Source of the DNA: Armatimonadota bacterium
Lineage (GTDB): Bacteria > Sysuimicrobiota > Sysuimicrobiia > Sysuimicrobiales > Humicultoraceae
Assembly (NCBI GenBank): GCA_037443365.1
Contig: JBBIOM010000041.1
Location: forward strand, 1 to 15,911
Direction of reading: 5' to 3'
Length of the DNA stretch: 15,911 nucleotides
The translations under genes were made by a program, and so were the position numbers. The notes under the pieces are model-generated. The model made no database searches. It saw only the letters and a program-made list of their open reading frames with translations, and had not been told where the DNA came from. Of this stretch, positions 2,579-9,755 are shown one piece after another (position 1 is the stretch's first letter; each line of letters begins with the position of its first letter).

Positions 2579-2959
2579 TCACCGGCACCGCGCGCAGTAG
2601 CCGAGGAACTCGAGCCGATGCCCTGTGACGCGGAACCCCGCCGCCGCGCCACGAGGCGCGCGCGGCGCCGGACAGCGATCCAGCGGCTGCCACCGGCCGC
2701 AACCCAGGCAGACCAGGTGGTCGTGGTGCTCGGTCGCCAGGCCGTATCGGACCGCGCCGCCGATAGAGGCGGTCTCCACGAGGCCGGCCCGCGCGAACGC
2801 TCCCAGCGCCCGATAGATCGTGGCGAGCCCCACGGCGTGCCCATCGCGCCCCACGCGACGGTGGATCTCCCTTGCGGTCAGGTGGCAGCCGGCGGTCTGG
2901 AGCACGCGCAGGATGCGCCGGCGCTGGGTCGTGTCGCGCGTCCGTCTTGGGCCGGTCAA
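2579..2959 (-). CDS. zur: Fur-family metalloregulator, most likely Zur
   Basis: RDTTQRRRIL..HLTAREI..GLATIYRAL helix-turn-helix, HHDHLVCLGCG and YCARC (two CxxC). TTG start at 2959 follows GGAGG by 6 nt. First gene of a znu operon, hence Zur rather than Fur (inference). Confidence 0.88.
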   Translation of the reverse strand: MTGPRRTRDTTQRRRILRVLQTAGCHLTAREIHRRVGRDGHAVGLATIYRALGAFARAGLVETASIGGAVRYGLATEHHDHLVCLGCGRWQPLDRCPAPRAPRGAAAGFRVTGHRLEFLGYCARCR

Positions 2960-2978
2960 CGCGTGCCTCCGCGAGAGT

Positions 2979-2999
2979 AAGTGAGAACCCTTCTCACTT
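2979..2999. promoter_or_regulatory. Putative Zur/Fur-type operator (perfect 9-3-9 palindrome)
   Basis: AAGTGAGAA-CCC-TTCTCACTT between the -10 element and the zur RBS; resembles TGAnAAnnnTTnTCA Fur-family boxes. Confidence 0.8.
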
Positions 3000-3012
3000 G
3001 GTTGGCGCAGTG

Positions 3013-3042
3013 ATTGTACGGCTCGGGCAGGGAAGCCGTCAA
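3013..3042 (-). promoter_or_regulatory. Sigma70-type promoter of the zur-znu operon (proximal)
   Basis: Minus strand TTGACG (3042-3037), 18-nt spacer, TACAAT (3018-3013). Confidence 0.75.
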
Positions 3043-3077
3043 CAGGGGATGAGTGCCGGTGGCCGAGACGGAAAGAG

Positions 3078-3189
3078 GGCGCGGCCGGGACGGGGACGAC
3101 GGTGGGGATGCAGCGTTGCGCCTGCGGGCGCCGGATCGCCGTGCCGGATGCGGCGACCGGCGTGCCCTCCCCGGTATCCCGGCCGCGCC
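3078..3189. other. Multi-branched inverted-repeat structure (candidate structured RNA)
   Basis: Perfect 13-bp IR GGCGCGGCCGGGA (3078-3090)/TCCCGGCCGCGCC (3177-3189), extended by CGGGGA (3091-3096)/TCCCCG (3168-3173), enclosing hairpins at ~3110-3125 and ~3126-3167. Confidence 0.5.
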
Positions 3190-3240
3190 ACGGTCGGGCT
3201 TGAGTGAACGCGGCAGAGCGCCTTCCGCGGACCGACCCGG

Positions 3241-3281
3241 AAAACAAAAACGCGAGCGCGAATGGAAGCACTCGCCTCGCG
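3241..3281 (-). terminator. Intrinsic terminator (riboswitch expression platform)
   Basis: Minus strand CGCGAG-GCGAGUG-[CUUC]-CAUUCGC-G-CUCGCG (13 bp, one bulge, one G-U) followed by UUUUUGUUUU. Confidence 0.85.
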
Positions 3282-3287
3282 GTGCTT

Positions 3288-3374
3288 CCTCTTCGGCAAC
3301 CCAGCCGGCCACCTTTCTTCTGTGGCCCTGTGGCTTTGCGTCCCCGGATCACTCCGGGTTTGCCCGTTCGGAGG
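3288..3374 (-). ncRNA. c-di-GMP-I (GEMM-I) riboswitch aptamer
   Basis: Minus strand CCUCCGAAC-GGGCAAA-CCCGGA-GUGA-UCCGGG-GACGCAAAG-CCACAGGGCCAC-AGAAGAAAG-GUGGCCGGCUGG-GUUGCCGAAGAGG. It shows the conserved GGCAAA, GNRA-capped P2, GACGCAAAGCC, P3 and GUURCCGA segments; P1 is CCUC/GAGG. Confidence 0.92.
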
Positions 3375-3397
3375 TGAGTCCGTATTCGGTTACATCA

Positions 3398-3426
3398 AGC
3401 GTACCGCTACCAACCACACTTGGCAA
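3398..3426 (-). promoter_or_regulatory. Sigma70-type promoter driving the riboswitch (distal)
   Basis: Minus strand TTGCCA (3426-3421), 17-nt spacer, TACGCT (3403-3398); predicted start ~3391, about 17 nt before P1. Confidence 0.65.
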
Positions 3427-3661: not shown

Positions 3662-3689
3662 GCAGGTTCGAGTCCTGCAGGACCTACCA
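3662..3689 (+). other. tRNA 3'-end fragment (T-arm, acceptor 3' strand, ACCA); att-site-like
   Basis: GCAGG-TTCGAGT-CCTGC-AGGACCT-A-CCA has exact tRNA 3' geometry and resembles tRNA-Lys/Ile2 3' ends; no D arm, anticodon arm or correctly placed 5' acceptor strand upstream. Confidence 0.75.
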
Positions 3690-3700
3690 GAACCGTTCGG

Positions 3701-4591
3701 TCACTTCAGCCTGGGGTCCAGCACGTCGCGCAAGCCGTCGCCCGTCAGATTGAGCCCTAGCACAGCCAGCAGGATAGCCACGCCAGGGAACAGGCTCATC
3801 CACCACGCGTCCCTCACGAAGGCCCGTCCCGAATAGGCCATCGCACCCCATTCAGGCGTGGGGGGCTGTGCCCCCAGCCCCAGGAAGCTGAGGGCGGCTG
3901 TCGCCAGAATCGCGCCTCCGAACTGAAGGGTGGCTATCACGATTACTGGTGCGAGGACGTTGTGCAGCACATGGCGCAAGAGCAGGCGCAGGTCAGAGGC
4001 TCCCAGCGCCCTTGCGGCCTCGATGTAATCGTACTCCTTGATTGCCAACACCGCTCCGCGGACTACGCGGATGAACGTTGGAGCAGCAGAGATCCCTACG
4101 GCAATCATCGCGTTCCGCAGCCCCGTACCGAGCACAGCGACAATGGCGATGGCCAGCAACAAGGTGGGGAACGCGAGCCAGATGTCAACCAACCGCATGA
4201 ACACGGCGTCGGCCCGGGGATAGAAGCCGCTTGTCACCCCGATCGTCACGCCCAGGAAGGCGGAGATGCTCACCGCGATGATCCCCGCTATCAAGGAGGG
4301 TCTGCTGCCCCAGATAAGCATTCTGAAGAGATCACGTCCGAACTCGTCGGTACCCGCAGGGTACTGTCGCGAGGGCGGCAGTAGCCGATCCTCGAAGTGC
4401 ATGGAATAGGGATCGTATGGCGCCAGGATCGGCGCTAGCAGCCCGACGAGAACAAGCAGGCAGATGATGGTGAGGCCCACCATGGCGCTGCGGTGCCTCC
4501 ACAGGCGGTTGGCCACGACACGTGTGGGGCTGGGAGCCGCTATTCGGTCCGGGTCGTGCGCGGGCTGTGCCAGCGCGGGGGTGTTGGCCAT
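3701..4591 (-). CDS. Peptide/nickel ABC transporter permease (DppC/OppC family)
   Basis: GTDEFGRDLF, MRLVDIWLAFPTLLLAI, EAA loop YIEAARALGAS, LSFLGLGAQPPTPEWG, GDGLRDVLDPR; start MANTP at 4591 after GAGGAG. Confidence 0.93.
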   Translation of the reverse strand: MANTPALAQPAHDPDRIAAPSPTRVVANRLWRHRSAMVGLTIICLLVLVGLLAPILAPYDPYSMHFEDRLLPPSRQYPAGTDEFGRDLFRMLIWGSRPSLIAGIIAVSISAFLGVTIGVTSGFYPRADAVFMRLVDIWLAFPTLLLAIAIVAVLGTGLRNAMIAVGISAAPTFIRVVRGAVLAIKEYDYIEAARALGASDLRLLLRHVLHNVLAPVIVIATLQFGGAILATAALSFLGLGAQPPTPEWGAMAYSGRAFVRDAWWMSLFPGVAILLAVLGLNLTGDGLRDVLDPRLK

Positions 4592-4595
4592 CTCC

Positions 4596-5516
4596 TCACT
4601 CGTACCTGATCCGGGGATCAAGCAGGCCGTAGAGCAGGTCCACAATCAGGTTCACGACAACGAAGACCATGGCAAAGATCAGGACCACCCCCTGGATCAC
4701 GGGGAAGTCGCGCTTCGCGATTGCCTGAACCGCGTACTGCCCAACGCCGGGCAGGGCGAAGACTGTCTCTGTTACCACCGCGCCAGACAACAGGCCGCCG
4801 AACTGCAGCCCGATCAAAGTGACAACAGGAATCAGGGCGTTGCGCAAGGCGTGACGGTAGAGAACCCCGAAGCGCGTCGCGCCCTTGGCGTGGGCGGTTC
4901 GGACGTAGTCCTGCCGGAGGACCTCGAGCAGGCTACTCCGCGTGAGGCGGGCGATGCTGCCCCCGGACAGCAGCCCGAGCGTCACGGCGGGTAGCACGAG
5001 CGAGTGCAGCCCGTCGAATCCCGATACCGGGAAGAGCGCCAACTTGACGGCGAAGGCCCACATGAGGAGGAATGCTATCCAGAAACTCGGCGCGGAGATG
5101 CCGATGAGGGCGCCTACCATCAGCGCGAAGTCGGCCGGGCGGTTGTGACTGACGGCTGCCCCAACGCCGGCCGAGAGCCCGATAGCGACGCCGACGGCCA
5201 GGCTCATCAAGGCCAACCGGAGCGTGACCGGAAACCTCGCCTTGATCTCTCGCGATACGGGCAGGTTGGTAATCAGCGATCGACCCAGGTCACCCTTGGC
5301 GACTCGCCATACGAAGCCCGCGTATTGCTCGTGCAGGGGGGCATCCAGCCCCATGCTCCTTCGGAGCTCGGTAACGGCCTCCGGTGGGGCAAACTCGCCC
5401 AGCATGTAGCGGACGGGATCCCCCGGGATCAGGTGAAGGAGCCCAAACACAAGCGCCGAAACGCCAAGGAGCACAAAGATCGTGCTCCCCAGGCGTTTGG
5501 CGACGTAGACCTGCAT
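4596..5516 (-). CDS. Peptide/nickel ABC transporter permease (DppB/OppB family)
   Basis: LIPGDPV, GDLGRSL, DYVRTAHAKG, HALRNALIP, VTETVFALPGVG, RDFPVIQG, DLLYGLLDPRI. Confidence 0.94.
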   Translation of the reverse strand: MQVYVAKRLGSTIFVLLGVSALVFGLLHLIPGDPVRYMLGEFAPPEAVTELRRSMGLDAPLHEQYAGFVWRVAKGDLGRSLITNLPVSREIKARFPVTLRLALMSLAVGVAIGLSAGVGAAVSHNRPADFALMVGALIGISAPSFWIAFLLMWAFAVKLALFPVSGFDGLHSLVLPAVTLGLLSGGSIARLTRSSLLEVLRQDYVRTAHAKGATRFGVLYRHALRNALIPVVTLIGLQFGGLLSGAVVTETVFALPGVGQYAVQAIAKRDFPVIQGVVLIFAMVFVVVNLIVDLLYGLLDPRIRYE

Positions 5517-5527
5517 ATCCCAGAAGT

Positions 5528-7114
5528 CTACCTACGAGCGATGTAGGCGTCTTGCAGGTACACCGCGTTAGTGAATGGATGTGCCTTGACGTCCCTCACC
5601 TCGCTCCGCACGGCTATGACGTGCTCCCTCACGTATAGAGGCACCCACGGGGCGATCTCTACCAGCTGCTTCTGGAGCTCGAAGTAGACCTCCATTCGCT
5701 TCCGCTCATCCATCGTGGTCCGCCCCGCGTCCAGCAGCCGGTCCAGTTCTGGAGTAGAGTAGTGCACACGGATCGAGCGGCCTGTGTAGAAGAGCGCGTG
5801 CAGGATGTCAGGATCGTACCATCCGTAGGGCCAGACAATCATCTCGTGAAGCCCCCGCGGGGTGTTGGCACGGATCGTTGCATCTTCCAGAACCTCCAGG
5901 TCCACATGCATTCCGATCGCGCGAAGCTGGGATTGCAGGATCATGCCGATCCTGTGATTTACGGGGTCGGTTGTAACCCAGAGACTGGAAGCAAGGCGCT
6001 TCCCTTCCTTGACCATAATGCCGTCTGGGCCCGGGTGCCACCCTCCCTCGGCTAGTATGGCACGAGCCTTCCGGCGATCGAATGGGTAGAGCTGCCTGCT
6101 CATCTCCTCGATCCGCTCGGAGAACCCGGGGATCGTCGGCGGAAGAGGCCCGTAAACGGGCTTGGCCAGCCCTTCCAGGGCGAAGCGGATCACGTGATCA
6201 CGCTGGACCGCAGTAGAGATCGCCTTGCGAACCTTGGCATCGGTGAAGGGCCACTTCTTGTTGTTGAAGCCCAGGTATGTGATCCCATTCTCACGTGTTC
6301 GCAGCAACTGGATGTCCTGGCGCTCTCGCAGCCGCCGGACTTCCTGCGTTGGAACGCTCATTACGACGTGGACTCCGCCCCGGTCCAGCTCAAGCATTCG
6401 CGTCGCCTCGTCCGGAATGATGCGCAGGCGGACCGATTCGACATAAGGGGCCCTCTTGTTCGATGCATAGCGCGGGCCCCAGGTATAGTCGTCGAACCTC
6501 CGGAAGACCAGATGCGACCCGCGCACCCTCTCCACGAACCTGAACGGCCCCGCGCCGCTTGGCCGCTCTCCGAACTCCAGCCCCTCACGTTCCATCACGA
6601 CCGGATCGAAGGGGGCGAGATACGCTGTTACCATCGGGGCCCAAATGGGGGCGTAGGGCTCGCGGAAGCGCAGTCGGACCGTTCGGCTATCCACGACATC
6701 AACGGCATCAAGCGGGCCCAGCATGAAGGCGGATGCGGGCGACCTGACCGCAGGGTCACGGGCTCGATCGTATGTCTTCTTCACCGCCTCAGCGGTGAGC
6801 GGTGAGCCGGAATGGAAGCGGACATCCGTACGCAGCGTGAGAGTGATTTCCTTGCCGTCTGGGGAGACGCGCCAAGACTCCGCCAAGTGCGGGATGATCT
6901 TCCCCTTCTCGTCCATTACGACGAGCGTGTCATAGGGGAGGTAGTTCCCTATGTCCACCCAGGTTGTCTTGTGAATGTCCAGCGTATCGGGGTCACGAAC
7001 AATGGCCATCGTAAGGGTCCCGCCGCGGACTGGCTGACCCAGGGCAGGTATGCTCAGGGCAAGCACCAGCAACAGGGTCACAGTAACGAGACTCTCGAGG
7101 GGTCTGCGCGCCAT
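5528..7114 (-). CDS. Peptide ABC transporter substrate-binding protein (family 5, DppA-like)
   Basis: Signal peptide ..SIPALG-Q; GGTLTMA, DPDTLD, IIPHLAESW, TLRTDVRFHSGSPLTAEAV, GAGPF, PFTDAKVRKAI, PWVPLY; RBS GGAGGGAGGAG. Confidence 0.93.
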   Translation of the reverse strand: MARRPLESLVTVTLLLVLALSIPALGQPVRGGTLTMAIVRDPDTLDIHKTTWVDIGNYLPYDTLVVMDEKGKIIPHLAESWRVSPDGKEITLTLRTDVRFHSGSPLTAEAVKKTYDRARDPAVRSPASAFMLGPLDAVDVVDSRTVRLRFREPYAPIWAPMVTAYLAPFDPVVMEREGLEFGERPSGAGPFRFVERVRGSHLVFRRFDDYTWGPRYASNKRAPYVESVRLRIIPDEATRMLELDRGGVHVVMSVPTQEVRRLRERQDIQLLRTRENGITYLGFNNKKWPFTDAKVRKAISTAVQRDHVIRFALEGLAKPVYGPLPPTIPGFSERIEEMSRQLYPFDRRKARAILAEGGWHPGPDGIMVKEGKRLASSLWVTTDPVNHRIGMILQSQLRAIGMHVDLEVLEDATIRANTPRGLHEMIVWPYGWYDPDILHALFYTGRSIRVHYSTPELDRLLDAGRTTMDERKRMEVYFELQKQLVEIAPWVPLYVREHVIAVRSEVRDVKAHPFTNAVYLQDAYIARR

Positions 7115-7188
7115 CTGACTCCTCCCTCCGGTGTTGTCCTTCTGTTATCCTCCCTTGAGCCTTCCCTATTGTCCTTGAAGTTAGGAAG

Positions 7189-7217
7189 ATGCTAGCGTGA
7201 GGGTGGTGTCAGGTCAA
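7189..7217 (-). promoter_or_regulatory. Sigma70-type promoter for the peptide ABC operon
   Basis: Minus strand TTGACC (7217-7212), 17-nt spacer, TAGCAT (7194-7189). Confidence 0.65.
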
Positions 7218-7384
7218 GAGGGTGTCCCGGGACCAGACGGTCGGTCCAGCAGTTGAGGATCTTGACACCGAGATCCTGCTCCAGAGTTACCAGCGTCTCC
7301 GGACGCTACATCCGGGCCGCGGCCCAGGTCCAATCTCCACTGGCCCTGGGAAACCCTCCTGGGTAAACGATCCGTGAAAGGCGG

Positions 7385-8785
7385 TTAGGCCCCGCGGTTC
7401 TCCGCCGTCTTTCGGAACAAGTATCGCTCGAACAGCAGGTCGACACCCCCCTGTGTCAATCTGAACTCCACCGGCAGGCACTGGCCGCCGGCGTGAGTGT
7501 GGAAGATCGCCGCATCCTCACTGGAGGAGCTCACCCACATAGGCACCAGCTGCTCGGTATGCCGGTCACGGATCTCGAGGACCAGGAAGTCGCCCGCGCG
7601 CCGTACGGATGCCCCGAATGTCTTCTGATAGGTCTCGTAGGTGCCAGCGAGCTGATCGAGCAGGCGTTCCACTCGAAGCCCCGGTACCCGCCAGGGATCC
7701 TCACCGAGCATCAGCGCGAGCGCGTAGTAGGCGAAGTGCTGCATGGGGTACCCACTGCCGTTTGCGAGCATGACCGTGCCGATGCCCCTCTCCGGCACGA
7801 AGGCCATGTAGGCGGTGCTCACCAGCACGCTGCCGCCGTGGCCCACCAGGGTATGGCCGAAGAAGTCCGGATAGATGGACAGACCGTAGCCATAGTAGCC
7901 AGTGGGGGGACTATCGCGACGCTCACCGCGACGTAGGGGTAGGGGGACGGCAGGGGTTTGCATTGAGCGAAGCGTCTCTGCCTCTACCAGGCGCCCGTTT
8001 GGCCCCACACCCCCTGACAGGTACATCATCACGTAGGAGGCCATGTCCTCGACGTTCGAGACGAGGCCGCCGTCGCTCGTCACGCGCCCGTAGAGATACT
8101 GGCCGCGCAGGTGGGTCTTGTCCTTGGTGATCAGGTACGGGGTCGCGGCATCCCCGTCGCCCTCGACATCCGCCCGACCGAAGTAGCTGCGCGTCATTCC
8201 CAGCGGGGTCAGGATGTGATCTCTTATGTAGTCCTGATACGGCTGGCCCGACACTCTCTCGATCACAGACCCGAGCAGAACATAGCCCTCGTTGAGATAG
8301 AACCAGCGCTCCCCGGGCCGACCCAGTGTCCAGCCGCCGGCACCGTTGACGAAGCGCAGCATGTCCTCGTACCCGCCTAGCGGAAGCCAGCGATCGCTGC
8401 TCCCCTGGCGATGCCGGATTGTCGCCTCGGCATAGGCCAGCGCTGGAATACCCGAACTGTGCGACATCAGGTGTCGCAGGCGTATCACCTCCCTGCCGGG
8501 GCGAACTTCCAAGGGGACGTACCGATCAACGGGGTCATCGACGCTGAGCAGGCCCTTCTCCTGCAGCTGCATCATGGCCAAGCAGGTGAACGACTTCGTG
8601 ACGCTCCCGATGCCGAAAAGAGTGCGTGGGGTAGCTGGCAAGCCTTGTTCCAGATCCCGGAATCCAAACCCTCGGCGATGGACCACCCTTCCGTCTTGAA
8701 TCAGGGCAAGGCTCAGGCCTGGAAGCCGGGTCTCACCCATCTTCTCCAGAACGAAATCCTCCAGTCTGGGCACCAATTCCAGCAT
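7385..8785 (-). CDS. Serine hydrolase, beta-lactamase class C fold; Pab87/CubicO-like peptidase with C-terminal oligomerisation domain
   Basis: SxxK (GIGSVTKS), YxN (WFYLNEGY), GHGG, HSSGIPALAYAEA, DGGLVS, YGYGL, C-terminal VDLLFERY as recalled for Pyrococcus Pab87; ATG 8785 after GGAGG; no signal peptide. The ORF extension to 9187 is not considered real. Confidence 0.88.
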   Translation of the reverse strand: MLELVPRLEDFVLEKMGETRLPGLSLALIQDGRVVHRRGFGFRDLEQGLPATPRTLFGIGSVTKSFTCLAMMQLQEKGLLSVDDPVDRYVPLEVRPGREVIRLRHLMSHSSGIPALAYAEATIRHRQGSSDRWLPLGGYEDMLRFVNGAGGWTLGRPGERWFYLNEGYVLLGSVIERVSGQPYQDYIRDHILTPLGMTRSYFGRADVEGDGDAATPYLITKDKTHLRGQYLYGRVTSDGGLVSNVEDMASYVMMYLSGGVGPNGRLVEAETLRSMQTPAVPLPLRRGERRDSPPTGYYGYGLSIYPDFFGHTLVGHGGSVLVSTAYMAFVPERGIGTVMLANGSGYPMQHFAYYALALMLGEDPWRVPGLRVERLLDQLAGTYETYQKTFGASVRRAGDFLVLEIRDRHTEQLVPMWVSSSSEDAAIFHTHAGGQCLPVEFRLTQGGVDLLFERYLFRKTAENRGA

Positions 8786-8899
8786 AGACGCGACCTCCCA
8801 GGAAACGGTTGTTTCTTCCCGATTCGCCTCGCTGTCGGGACGCCCCTTCACGGCCTCCAGCGGCAGGGGGTGCTCATCCAGAGAGGCCCCAGCGTCTCT

Positions 8900-8960
8900 G
8901 GCTCTTCCGGAAACCGGGTGGGTAACTGAACCCGGCCGCATCGCGTTCAAACCCACACCA
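8900..8960 (-). mobile_element. Second ISL3-like terminal fragment
   Basis: GGCTCTTCCGGAAACCGGGTGGGTA (8900-8924) matches 3452-3476 at 18/25 positions in the same orientation; the minus strand reads GLNAMRPGSVTHP, loosely like ISL3 transposase C-termini. Right boundary approximate. Confidence 0.5.
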
Positions 8961-9014
8961 ACAGAAAGGGACCCCGGAAGGAGGTTGGCCCGACCGCTGC
9001 GAAACGGCCTAGCG

Positions 9015-9755
<741 letters not shown>

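Follow-up and report, generated by a model that had tools for sequence, protein, structure and literature searches.

A conserved non-coding unit in which a c-di-GMP-I riboswitch may gate the synthesis of a second structured RNA beside metal-homeostasis genes

Riboswitches of the c-di-GMP-I class (Rfam family RF01051), which respond to cyclic dimeric guanosine monophosphate (c-di-GMP), are typified by Vc2, Bc1, and Cd1. They consist of a two-helix aptamer with a GNRA tetraloop and with G, A, and C at the key positions, and a terminator serves as the expression platform. A riboswitch with all of these features lies on the minus strand of a 15,911-nucleotide (nt) stretch of DNA, hereafter the window (contig JBBIOM010000041.1 of assembly GCA_037443365.1, from an Armatimonadota bacterium placed by GTDB in the Humicultoraceae). 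Unlike the RF01051 type, the unit in the window is not followed by an open reading frame (ORF). Behind its terminator come a linker and a further structured RNA domain, referred to here as block 2, and these parts are conserved together with the riboswitch.

Riboswitches that control a non-coding RNA have been found for another ligand. The adenosylcobalamin (AdoCbl) riboswitches associated with EutX in Enterococcus and with Rli55 in Listeria are riboswitch-controlled non-coding RNAs. In these systems, as would be the case in the window, a riboswitch and its terminator decide on the synthesis of a longer non-coding RNA, and the output is an RNA and not a protein. The window differs from them in its ligand class, which is c-di-GMP, and its downstream RNA is unrelated to theirs. 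Small RNAs upstream of and linked to Vc2, whose stability depends on c-di-GMP, have already been described.

As far as the available part of its description goes, the closest published precedent for the window unit is Bc1 of Bacillus thuringiensis (PMC11218506). That part presents Bc1 as a c-di-GMP-I riboswitch with a long expression platform and two terminators, which are simple hairpins located 28 bp apart, and it names the chemotaxis receptor gene mcpE as the gene under control. A Fur-family box, ATTGAGAAACATTTTCAAAC, lies between the two terminators, binds Zur in an electrophoretic mobility shift assay, and slightly alters the response to c-di-GMP (PMC11218506). Likewise, in the window a Fur-family box with a TGAGAA-N3-TTYTCA core lies downstream of the aptamer, there is more than one candidate termination checkpoint after the aptamer, and c-di-GMP sensing and Zur appear to be joined in one leader. 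In contrast to Bc1 as described there, the second element of the window unit is a multi-helix domain of 115–160 nt, the box stands behind a promoter of its own, and a regulator and its metal transporter are encoded downstream.

Another group of related systems comprises the heterologous tandems. The accessible part of a survey (PMC9481103) lists S-adenosylmethionine-I (SAM-I)/AdoCbl, glycine/c-di-GMP-I, and AdoCbl/c-di-GMP-I tandems as well as a pair formed by a c-di-GMP-II riboswitch and a group I ribozyme. Like the tandems in that part of the survey, the window unit has two structured domains in series, with a terminator belonging to the first, and c-di-GMP among the inputs. Unlike them, block 2 fits no known aptamer or ribozyme family in Rfam 15, the release used throughout, and the accessible part of the survey holds no partner resembling block 2. 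A literature search found no paper in which znu or a metallophosphoesterase gene is preceded by a c-di-GMP riboswitch, and no described case of c-di-GMP gating the synthesis of a separate downstream structured RNA.

The promoter, aptamer, terminator, linker, and block 2 form one conserved non-coding unit (window 3426-3077, minus strand). A DNA search of 40 relatives, with window 3430-2960 as the query, showed that conservation runs ~160 nt past the aptamer at 74–88% identity across genera. Alignments of the unit were built stepwise from 16, then 22, and then 43 distinct copies. The distribution of block 2 was determined by BLAST and with a covariance model (R1) in 94 genomes, of which 34, from 12 genera, belong to the window's own family (f1) and 60 to six sister families. 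The 'order', 'class', and 'phylum' scopes give the identical 94 genomes, and the R1 sampling is within the phylum. Block 2 was present in 22 of the 34 family genomes, which represent 8 of the 12 genera, and was found in none of the 60 genomes of the other families. It occurs as one copy per genome, except for a duplicate at a contig edge in genome G017. This second copy (L255, G017:C66:28-188) is 91% identical to the first, lies at the start of its contig, and could reflect either strain heterogeneity within a metagenome-assembled genome or a true duplicate.

Three genomes of the window's own genus (G001, G003, and G004) appear to lack the element. These absences are uninformative because the contigs end near zur in G001 and G003 and the zur locus is missing from the assembly of G004, which is 85% complete. 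The contigs G001:C17 and G003:C181 break off within ~95–140 nt of zur on its upstream side, at precisely the place expected for the unit. Two genomes are flagged as unpublished: G015 belongs to the 12 family genomes in which the element was not found, and G024 is one of the 22 that bear it, so that it contributes one row to each family-genome count as well as one row each to the tallies of loci with a metallophosphoesterase gene next and of loci with a T-run given below.

Further evidence that the unit is a single entity comes from metagenomes. All 24 contigs retrieved by a scan with a block-2-specific pattern contained true elements, and a GEMM-I (c-di-GMP-I) aptamer was present ~215 nt upstream of block 2 in all 23 contigs with enough DNA on that side; the 24th is cut by the contig end. 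The aptamer of the unit and block 2 were never observed apart. A scan of genome contigs with a loose pattern gave 120 GC-rich chance matches, none of them true by nhmmer. The narrow distribution is a limitation: the element is confined to one family, in a phylum that is small, high in GC, and for the most part uncultured.

The first-pass annotation of this DNA, made from the letters alone, had read a distal promoter, a GEMM-I aptamer without an ORF of its own, and a terminator, followed further downstream by a second promoter and a Zur-like box, and each of these elements was recovered. The aptamer (3374-3291, minus strand) has a GNRA tetraloop with the sequence GUGA. In cmscan the sole RNA family in the entire window was RF03167, c-di-GMP-I-GGC, at 3291-3373 on the minus strand (62.7 bits versus a gathering threshold of 59, E 4.9e-13). 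The parent family RF01051 scored 65.5 bits at 3292-3374 on the same strand, against a gathering threshold of 35; the GGC label arises because RF03167 has the lower E-value in clan competition. Does the aptamer belong to the GGC variant? Weinberg and colleagues reportedly chose that name in 2017 for the nucleotides at positions 20, 47, and 92. Around the column that tells the variant apart, the GGC model has CGCGAA (CGCGAAgCc) as its consensus and the window has CGCAAA (CGCAAAGCC); all 43 units carry an A in that column. The variant identity is ruled out by this A, which stands in place of G at the A47-equivalent column, and the aptamer is therefore an ordinary c-di-GMP aptamer. The available part of the Bc1 paper gives the key positions of Vc2 as G20, A47, and C92 (PMC11218506). 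In our own alignment reading of the Vc2 positions, the window has CGGGC, CGCAAAGCC, and UUGCCGA at the equivalent places, in other words G, A, and C.

The helices of the aptamer are well preserved among the 43 units. Pairing is kept in 98% of the main helix, where 4 pairs differ at both positions, and in 98–100% of helices 2–4, where 5 pairs do so. The tetraloop (alignment columns 30-33) is G-Y-R-A in 43 of 43 units, and G30 and A33 never vary. The window aptamer is, as judged from its sequence, a genuine canonical c-di-GMP-I riboswitch that is predicted to bind its ligand.

The same genome contains four further GEMM-I riboswitches (C7:68149-68244, C7:70556-70634, C7:77759-77844, and C1:160879-160959). 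Contig C7 carries three of the four within a 10-kb stretch, close to a GGDEF gene (C7:65710-66174), and the genome encodes 6 GGDEF genes. Each of the four is followed by an ORF after ~60–220 nt. The ORFs near them include a sigma-factor-like gene and pilin-like genes, a 737-amino-acid (aa) protein, a 246-aa protein, and secreted proteins; the 737-aa protein shows TPR-like repeats by eye, no family search having been run on it. The closest paralogue of the window aptamer is at C7:77762-77842 (81% identity).

Transcription of the unit appears to start from the distal promoter P1 (3426-3398, minus strand), which consists of a -35 hexamer TTGCCA (3426-3421), a 17-nt spacer, and a -10 hexamer TACGCT (3403-3398). 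The consensus promoter scan misses it because TACGCT matches just 3 of 6 positions. Both hexamers are nevertheless kept in position in 21 relatives, in the form TTGCCA-N17-TAnnnT. The same 21 relatives have an AAYYGAATA block between the -10 hexamer and the aptamer, represented in the window by the leader AACCGAATAC (3391-3382), and transcription probably starts at the 5' edge of this leader.

The aptamer is followed by two alternative hairpins. One of them is the intrinsic terminator T1 (3281-3241), composed of a 13-bp stem (3281-3269 / 3264-3251), a CUUC loop, and a T-run at 3250-3241. A terminator scan found the stem 3275-3252 followed by GTTTTTGTTT, one site compared with 0.4 expected in shuffled sequences. 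The other is an antiterminator hairpin (3289-3264), in which GGAAGCAC (3289-3282) pairs with GUGCUUCC (3271-3264). It was obtained as the unconstrained minimum free energy (MFE) fold and by RNAalifold in the 43 units. The 5' strand of the antiterminator shares 2 nt with GAGG (3291-3288), the 3' strand of helix P1, which pairs with CCUC (3374-3371). When helix P1 is enforced in ViennaRNA, the 13-bp terminator hairpin 3281-3251 forms ahead of the T-run TTTTTGTTTT; when the fold is left unconstrained, the antiterminator forms. Compensatory changes in T1 can be seen by eye in the alignment rows of G010 and G024, and a fixed-column count gives 85.9% pairing with 1 pair changed on both sides. The antiterminator helix is invariant among the units and is for this reason beyond covariation testing. 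The architecture suggests, weakly, a switch of the OFF type in which termination occurs at high c-di-GMP and read-through of T1 at low c-di-GMP, which is also the polarity that the first-pass annotation had assumed.

The linker (3240-3193) contains no promoter-like site in the promoter scan and carries one conserved motif (consensus GCCCGUCGG; window GGUCCGCGG at 3233-3225). It could base-pair with CCGAACGGGC, to which it is complementary and which forms part of the aptamer's 5' side (window 3370-3361 versus 3233-3225; alignment columns 11-20 versus 177-185), and RNAalifold pairs columns 17-20 with 177-180. Substitutions in it are mainly C-to-U with the pairing to G retained: 24 keep the pairing and 12 break it. 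In a read-through RNA the motif could unfold the aptamer; alternatively, it could form a local 3-bp hairpin.

Block 2 (3192-3077, minus strand) is identified by its fold, by covariation, and by an R1 score of 85.5 bits. It is closed by helix H1 (3189-3177 / 3090-3078), which has 12–13 bp across relatives. Inside H1 lie a second helix, H2 (3173-3168 / 3096-3091), and an 11-bp hairpin, H3 (3161-3151 / 3141-3130), whose loop (3150-3142) has the invariant core UCCGGCA. The single strands include an unpaired C-rich segment GCAUCCCCACC (3111-3101) and the C-rich GCAUCCCCA; a crude scan of the genome for mRNA targets complementary to GCAUCCCCA was uninformative. The domain is ~115 nt long in the window and 115–160 nt overall, and in all genera but the window's own it has an extra variable hairpin and a conserved hairpin loop GCGGGCAACUG.

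The window copy of block 2 folds into the consensus structure with an MFE of -77.2 kcal/mol (z -4.31), and none of 200 shuffled sequences folds as well. Across the 43 units, H1 is paired in 99% of cells, H2 in 94%, and H3 in 96.8%, with 1, 1, and 5 pairs changed on both sides, respectively. Five measures were compared with 500 shuffles for the entire structure: on four of them no shuffle reaches the observed value, and on the remaining one, 'further standard pair types', 18 of 500 do. Sliding the pairing partners lowers pairing from 96% to 34–47%. The G-U pairs, which are numerous, are compatible with the minus strand alone. The covariation of block 2 is comparable to that of the aptamer, and the counts are supportive of the structure, not decisive.

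What kind of RNA is block 2? Rfam offered no matching family, either for the window copy (E<=1) or for the copies of six relatives (E<=5). It is not the 6S RNA, as the true 6S RNA of this genome (74.6 bits) lies elsewhere, at C4:3474-3655. A small protein encoded in block 2 or in the linker was also rejected, since 1- and 2-nt indels break every frame; peptides read from a conserved ATG/GTG share just 5 codons, and this start has no Shine-Dalgarno sequence. The two ORFs that overlap the unit (2956-3312 and 3039-3299) gave no match in a Pfam search. The first-pass annotation had described ~200 nt without a credible coding sequence behind the terminator. It was right that there is no coding gene, and wrong insofar as the stretch is not empty, because it holds block 2. 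Thus, the riboswitch is followed on the same strand, with no intervening promoter, by a conserved RNA that contains no ORF, which is the arrangement of a riboswitch-gated non-coding RNA.

The unit is bound to its downstream, metal-related side, and the upstream flank is not conserved. Downstream neighbors were tallied in 46 loci (22 family genomes and 24 metagenome contigs), with the first downstream feature recognized by the query set used being logged in each and the neighbors named by their Pfam families. In 5 loci nothing was recognized or too little DNA was available, leaving 41 informative loci. On the same strand as the unit, the first recognized feature was a gene for a Fur-family regulator, probably zur, in 14 loci, znuA in 1, a secreted phosphoesterase of the Metallophos family in 16, and a P-type ATPase with an HMA domain in 1. 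In the other 9 loci it was a gene on the opposite strand (M20 peptidase, SCO1, PCuAC, YibE/F, or ISL3 transposase). The form with zur first spans 5 genera, and zur or znuA is located <=4.5 kb downstream in 18 of the 22 family genomes, so the riboswitch–zur/znu synteny seen in the window is kept in relatives.

A different gene thus stands behind the unit in many relatives and metagenome contigs, where the metallophosphoesterase is the commonest same-strand neighbor. This gene was not found in the genome assembly of the window. It is also missing behind the unit in four genomes of the same genus, whose units are 78–84% identical to that of the window, and a loss from this position in the lineage of the window is possible. 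Six metagenome loci (L234, L235, L237, L240, L245, and L252) have ~0.85–1.15 kb between the unit and the metallophosphoesterase gene and no T-run after H1. No convincing ORF was seen in this gap with a filter on GC content at third codon positions in L234, L237, and L240, and the gap in L235, L245, and L252 is given by tblastn offsets only. The gap may hold a further non-coding RNA. In one genome of the window's genus, G006, an insertion of ~0.7 kb with an ORF for a HicB-like antitoxin (UPF0150/HicB_lk_antitox; L066, G006:C11, 1830-2560) sits between block 2 and the zur promoter.

How might such a unit function? With moderate confidence, and reasoning from sequence comparison, we favor a model in which c-di-GMP gates the synthesis of the conserved non-coding RNA, the regulated output being first of all an RNA and not a protein. 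The c-di-GMP-bound aptamer would close helix P1; the closed helix would weaken the antiterminator, and the 13-bp terminator would then form. As a result, a short RNA of ~150 nt would be released at high c-di-GMP. At low c-di-GMP, polymerase would pass T1 and make block 2, giving an RNA of ~315 nt that would end at or shortly past H1. A polymerase that also passed H1 would, in this genome, meet the Zur-guarded promoter of the zur-znuACB operon. Block 2 itself is most likely a regulatory RNA tied to the neighboring metal-homeostasis genes. That the RNA would be the regulated product follows from the loci in which the unit is kept without a same-strand follower (9 loci) and from those in which the phosphoesterase gene is gone.

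Several observations weigh against this model. A same-strand gene does follow in 32 of the 41 informative loci. The longest ORF, counted from its first ATG, GTG, or TTG, starts only 23 nt after block 2 in G043 and 67 nt after it in G016, and in loci of this type block 2 looks like a cis-acting leader and not like a free RNA. A run of at least 4 T follows H1 in 14 of the 46 loci, among them two where a convergent gene comes next; there is none in 32, including the window, where the sequence after H1 is CCUCUUUCCGUCU. Taken in isolation, the platform adopts the terminator fold whether the 3' strand of helix P1 is included or not, so the OFF logic is weakly backed. Finally, the sequences are close kin, with an effective sequence number of 1.61 for R1, so that there are fewer independent events than the covariation counts suggest.

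Some of these observations point to the main rival of the gated-RNA model, namely a tandem riboswitch. Here, block 2 would be a second aptamer of a new class, H1 with its U-run would act as a terminator, and together with the c-di-GMP switch they would form a two-input gate for the downstream gene, that is, the metallophosphoesterase gene, zur, or znuA. Block 2 has the appearance of an aptamer: a multi-stem junction closed by a long helix, with invariant loop and junction nucleotides and peripheral stems of variable length. The T-runs directly after H1 include 8 of the 10 loci with a metallophosphoesterase gene within ~350 nt, in G043 and G016 the ORF begins very close behind block 2, and heterologous tandems containing c-di-GMP-I are known from the accessible part of the survey (PMC9481103). 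However, there is no local terminator hairpin before the U-run, only H1, a helix that acts over a 150-nt range. The U-run is missing in most loci, and a convergent gene is next in 9 loci. In the window's genus a promoter stands between block 2 and the next gene. The element is limited to one family, and the hint at a ligand is the metal-gene context alone. We regard the tandem arrangement as unlikely, and give an equally low rating to the broader proposal of block 2 as an RNA that senses a ligand or a protein, be it a new class of riboswitch or something else, and that invariably stands in series with a c-di-GMP-I switch. If it were true, a natural two-input RNA gate would couple a messenger of biofilm formation and motility to metal (zinc) homeostasis and to a secreted metallophosphoesterase.

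A third reading concerns the genes that follow the unit in the window. The end of block 2 is separated by 35 nt from the -35 hexamer of a proximal promoter, P2 (3042-3013, minus strand; TTGACG-18-TACAAT), which has 10 of 12 matches in a scan that found 1 such site versus 0.1 expected, and which is conserved in relatives of the same genus. Located 13 nt past the -10 hexamer of P2 is a Fur-family, Zur-like operator (2999-2979), a perfect 9-3-9 inverted repeat of AAGTGAGAA, GGG, and TTCTCACTT that is conserved in G002, G005, and G007. Its core, TGAGAANNNTTCTCA, is unique in the 2.2-Mb genome at 0 mismatches, and 15 sites are found at <=2 mismatches. The box is followed by four genes on the minus strand: a gene for a Fur-family regulator, probably zur (2959-2579; TTG start, GGAGG at 2970-2966; Pfam FUR 2.9e-23), and genes for a ZnuA-type binding protein (2568-1633; ZnuA 4.1e-76), an ABC ATPase (~1576-833; ABC_tran 1.3e-30), and an ABC-3 permease (825-13; ABC-3 1.6e-65). 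In other words, the inverted repeat stands just past the promoter of an operon composed of a Fur-family regulator and a ZnuA-type transporter, as a Zur operator would.

The first-pass annotation had named this operon zur-znuACB. All four gene types are present by Pfam; the name and the Zn type fall short of the NCBIfam cut-offs. Neither the regulator nor the transporter reached an NCBIfam equivalog cut-off, the best matches below it being PerR/Fur and MntC/AztC, and transporter models of the Mn type (MntC-like) and Zn type (AztC-like) score alike. The binding protein has a His at its third ligand position, in VTTHTAF, which we take to be the mark of a Zn-type binding protein. The name zur-znuACB, with a Zn-type transporter, is likely because a Fur-family gene heads an operon of ZnuA type and because of this His.

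One obvious model based on this gene order, and the one proposed in the first-pass annotation, is a two-input leader: at low c-di-GMP, transcripts from promoter P1 would run through block 2, P2, and the operator and add to the expression of zur-znuACB. The unit is oriented like zur, with just those 35 nt from block 2 to P2, and neither the window nor its genus shows a clear T-run behind H1. The first same-strand feature is zur in the 14 loci from 5 genera mentioned above, and there is a precedent of Zur acting inside a c-di-GMP-I expression platform in the available part of the Bc1 study (PMC11218506). On the other hand, zur has its own strong promoter and operator past block 2 in the window's genus, G010, and G012. 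Because P2 and the box stand between block 2 and zur, block 2 lies outside the zur leader made from P2. The 13-bp GC helix H1 together with a U-rich tract may stop polymerase, and a leader of this kind would leave the conserved structure of block 2 without a role. Furthermore, the unit is equally conserved before the metallophosphoesterase (16), the P-type ATPase (1), and convergent genes (9). Since the next gene is on the opposite strand in these last 9 of 41 loci, read-through into zur cannot be the general function of the unit. As a general account the two-input leader is a tentative one, clearly less probable than the gated RNA; in this genus, read-through into zur-znuACB may occur in addition. 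The linkage behind the earlier view of a riboswitch pointing into the zur operon is thus real and conserved; the empty spacer that it supposed is not, given that the riboswitch is fused to block 2, which ends shortly before P2.

The flank upstream of the unit bears on a last reading, that of an orphan relic. The first-pass annotation had noted a remnant of an insertion sequence (IS) next to the riboswitch, and this is borne out by an N-terminal fragment of an ISL3 transposase (3562-3485, minus strand; 27 aa, 74% identity, E 3e-6 by tblastn). The fragment, the scar of a rearrangement immediately upstream of the unit, matches residues 11-37 of the intact transposase of a relative, the query being ISL3 by Pfam. 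Together with a tRNA-3'-like sequence, it stands in place of the NadE-like/lipoprotein flank of G005-G007. This sequence, GCAGGTTCGAGTCCTGCAGGACCTACCA (3662-3689, plus strand), resembles a tRNA T-arm, the 3' strand of an acceptor stem, and CCA. No complete tRNA was found near the ISL3 fragment by ARAGORN, and Rfam gave sub-threshold noise only. Adjoining the ISL3 fragment, the tRNA-3'-like sequence may be a scar left by integration or rearrangement. The unit of G011 directly borders an intact ISL3 element, and the locus seems prone to IS activity or assembly breaks. Beyond the scar, at 3701-9187 on the minus strand, lies an operon-like row of genes for a Beta-lactamase/Pab87_oct protein (D-aminopeptidase-like), SBP_bac_5, and OppB-like and OppC-like proteins, in which no ATPase genes were seen by Pfam.

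According to the orphan reading, the gene once controlled by the riboswitch, for example the metallophosphoesterase gene, was deleted in this lineage and the remainder is functionless. No homologue of that gene was found in this genome even though it is the commonest same-strand neighbor elsewhere, the scar lies just upstream, and the upstream flank is unlike that of same-genus relatives. Against this, the promoter, aptamer, terminator, and block 2 are intact and closely similar to those of the four same-genus genomes that also lack the gene, the helices are kept by compensatory or wobble changes, and the window copy folds at z -4.3. The form adjacent to zur occurs in 5 genera. The unit is not a decaying orphan because it is conserved as a whole and travels together beside metal genes. 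The first-pass annotation had offered an orphan left by gene deletion as its alternative. The conservation of the promoter, the covariation in the helices, and the fact that 8 genera have retained the unit as a single copy speak against such an orphan, and we consider it highly improbable.

c-di-GMP riboswitches are normally read as switches of protein genes, and in this family the conserved output would be a structured RNA without an Rfam family. If block 2 is a regulatory RNA, as the gated-RNA model has it, c-di-GMP gates the synthesis of a separate downstream structured RNA. If block 2 is instead a sensor, the unit is a new heterologous tandem gate and block 2 a candidate orphan riboswitch with a clear gene context. 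Either reading would provide a concrete link between c-di-GMP signaling and zinc uptake, which has so far been hinted at only by the binding of Zur inside the Bc1 platform.

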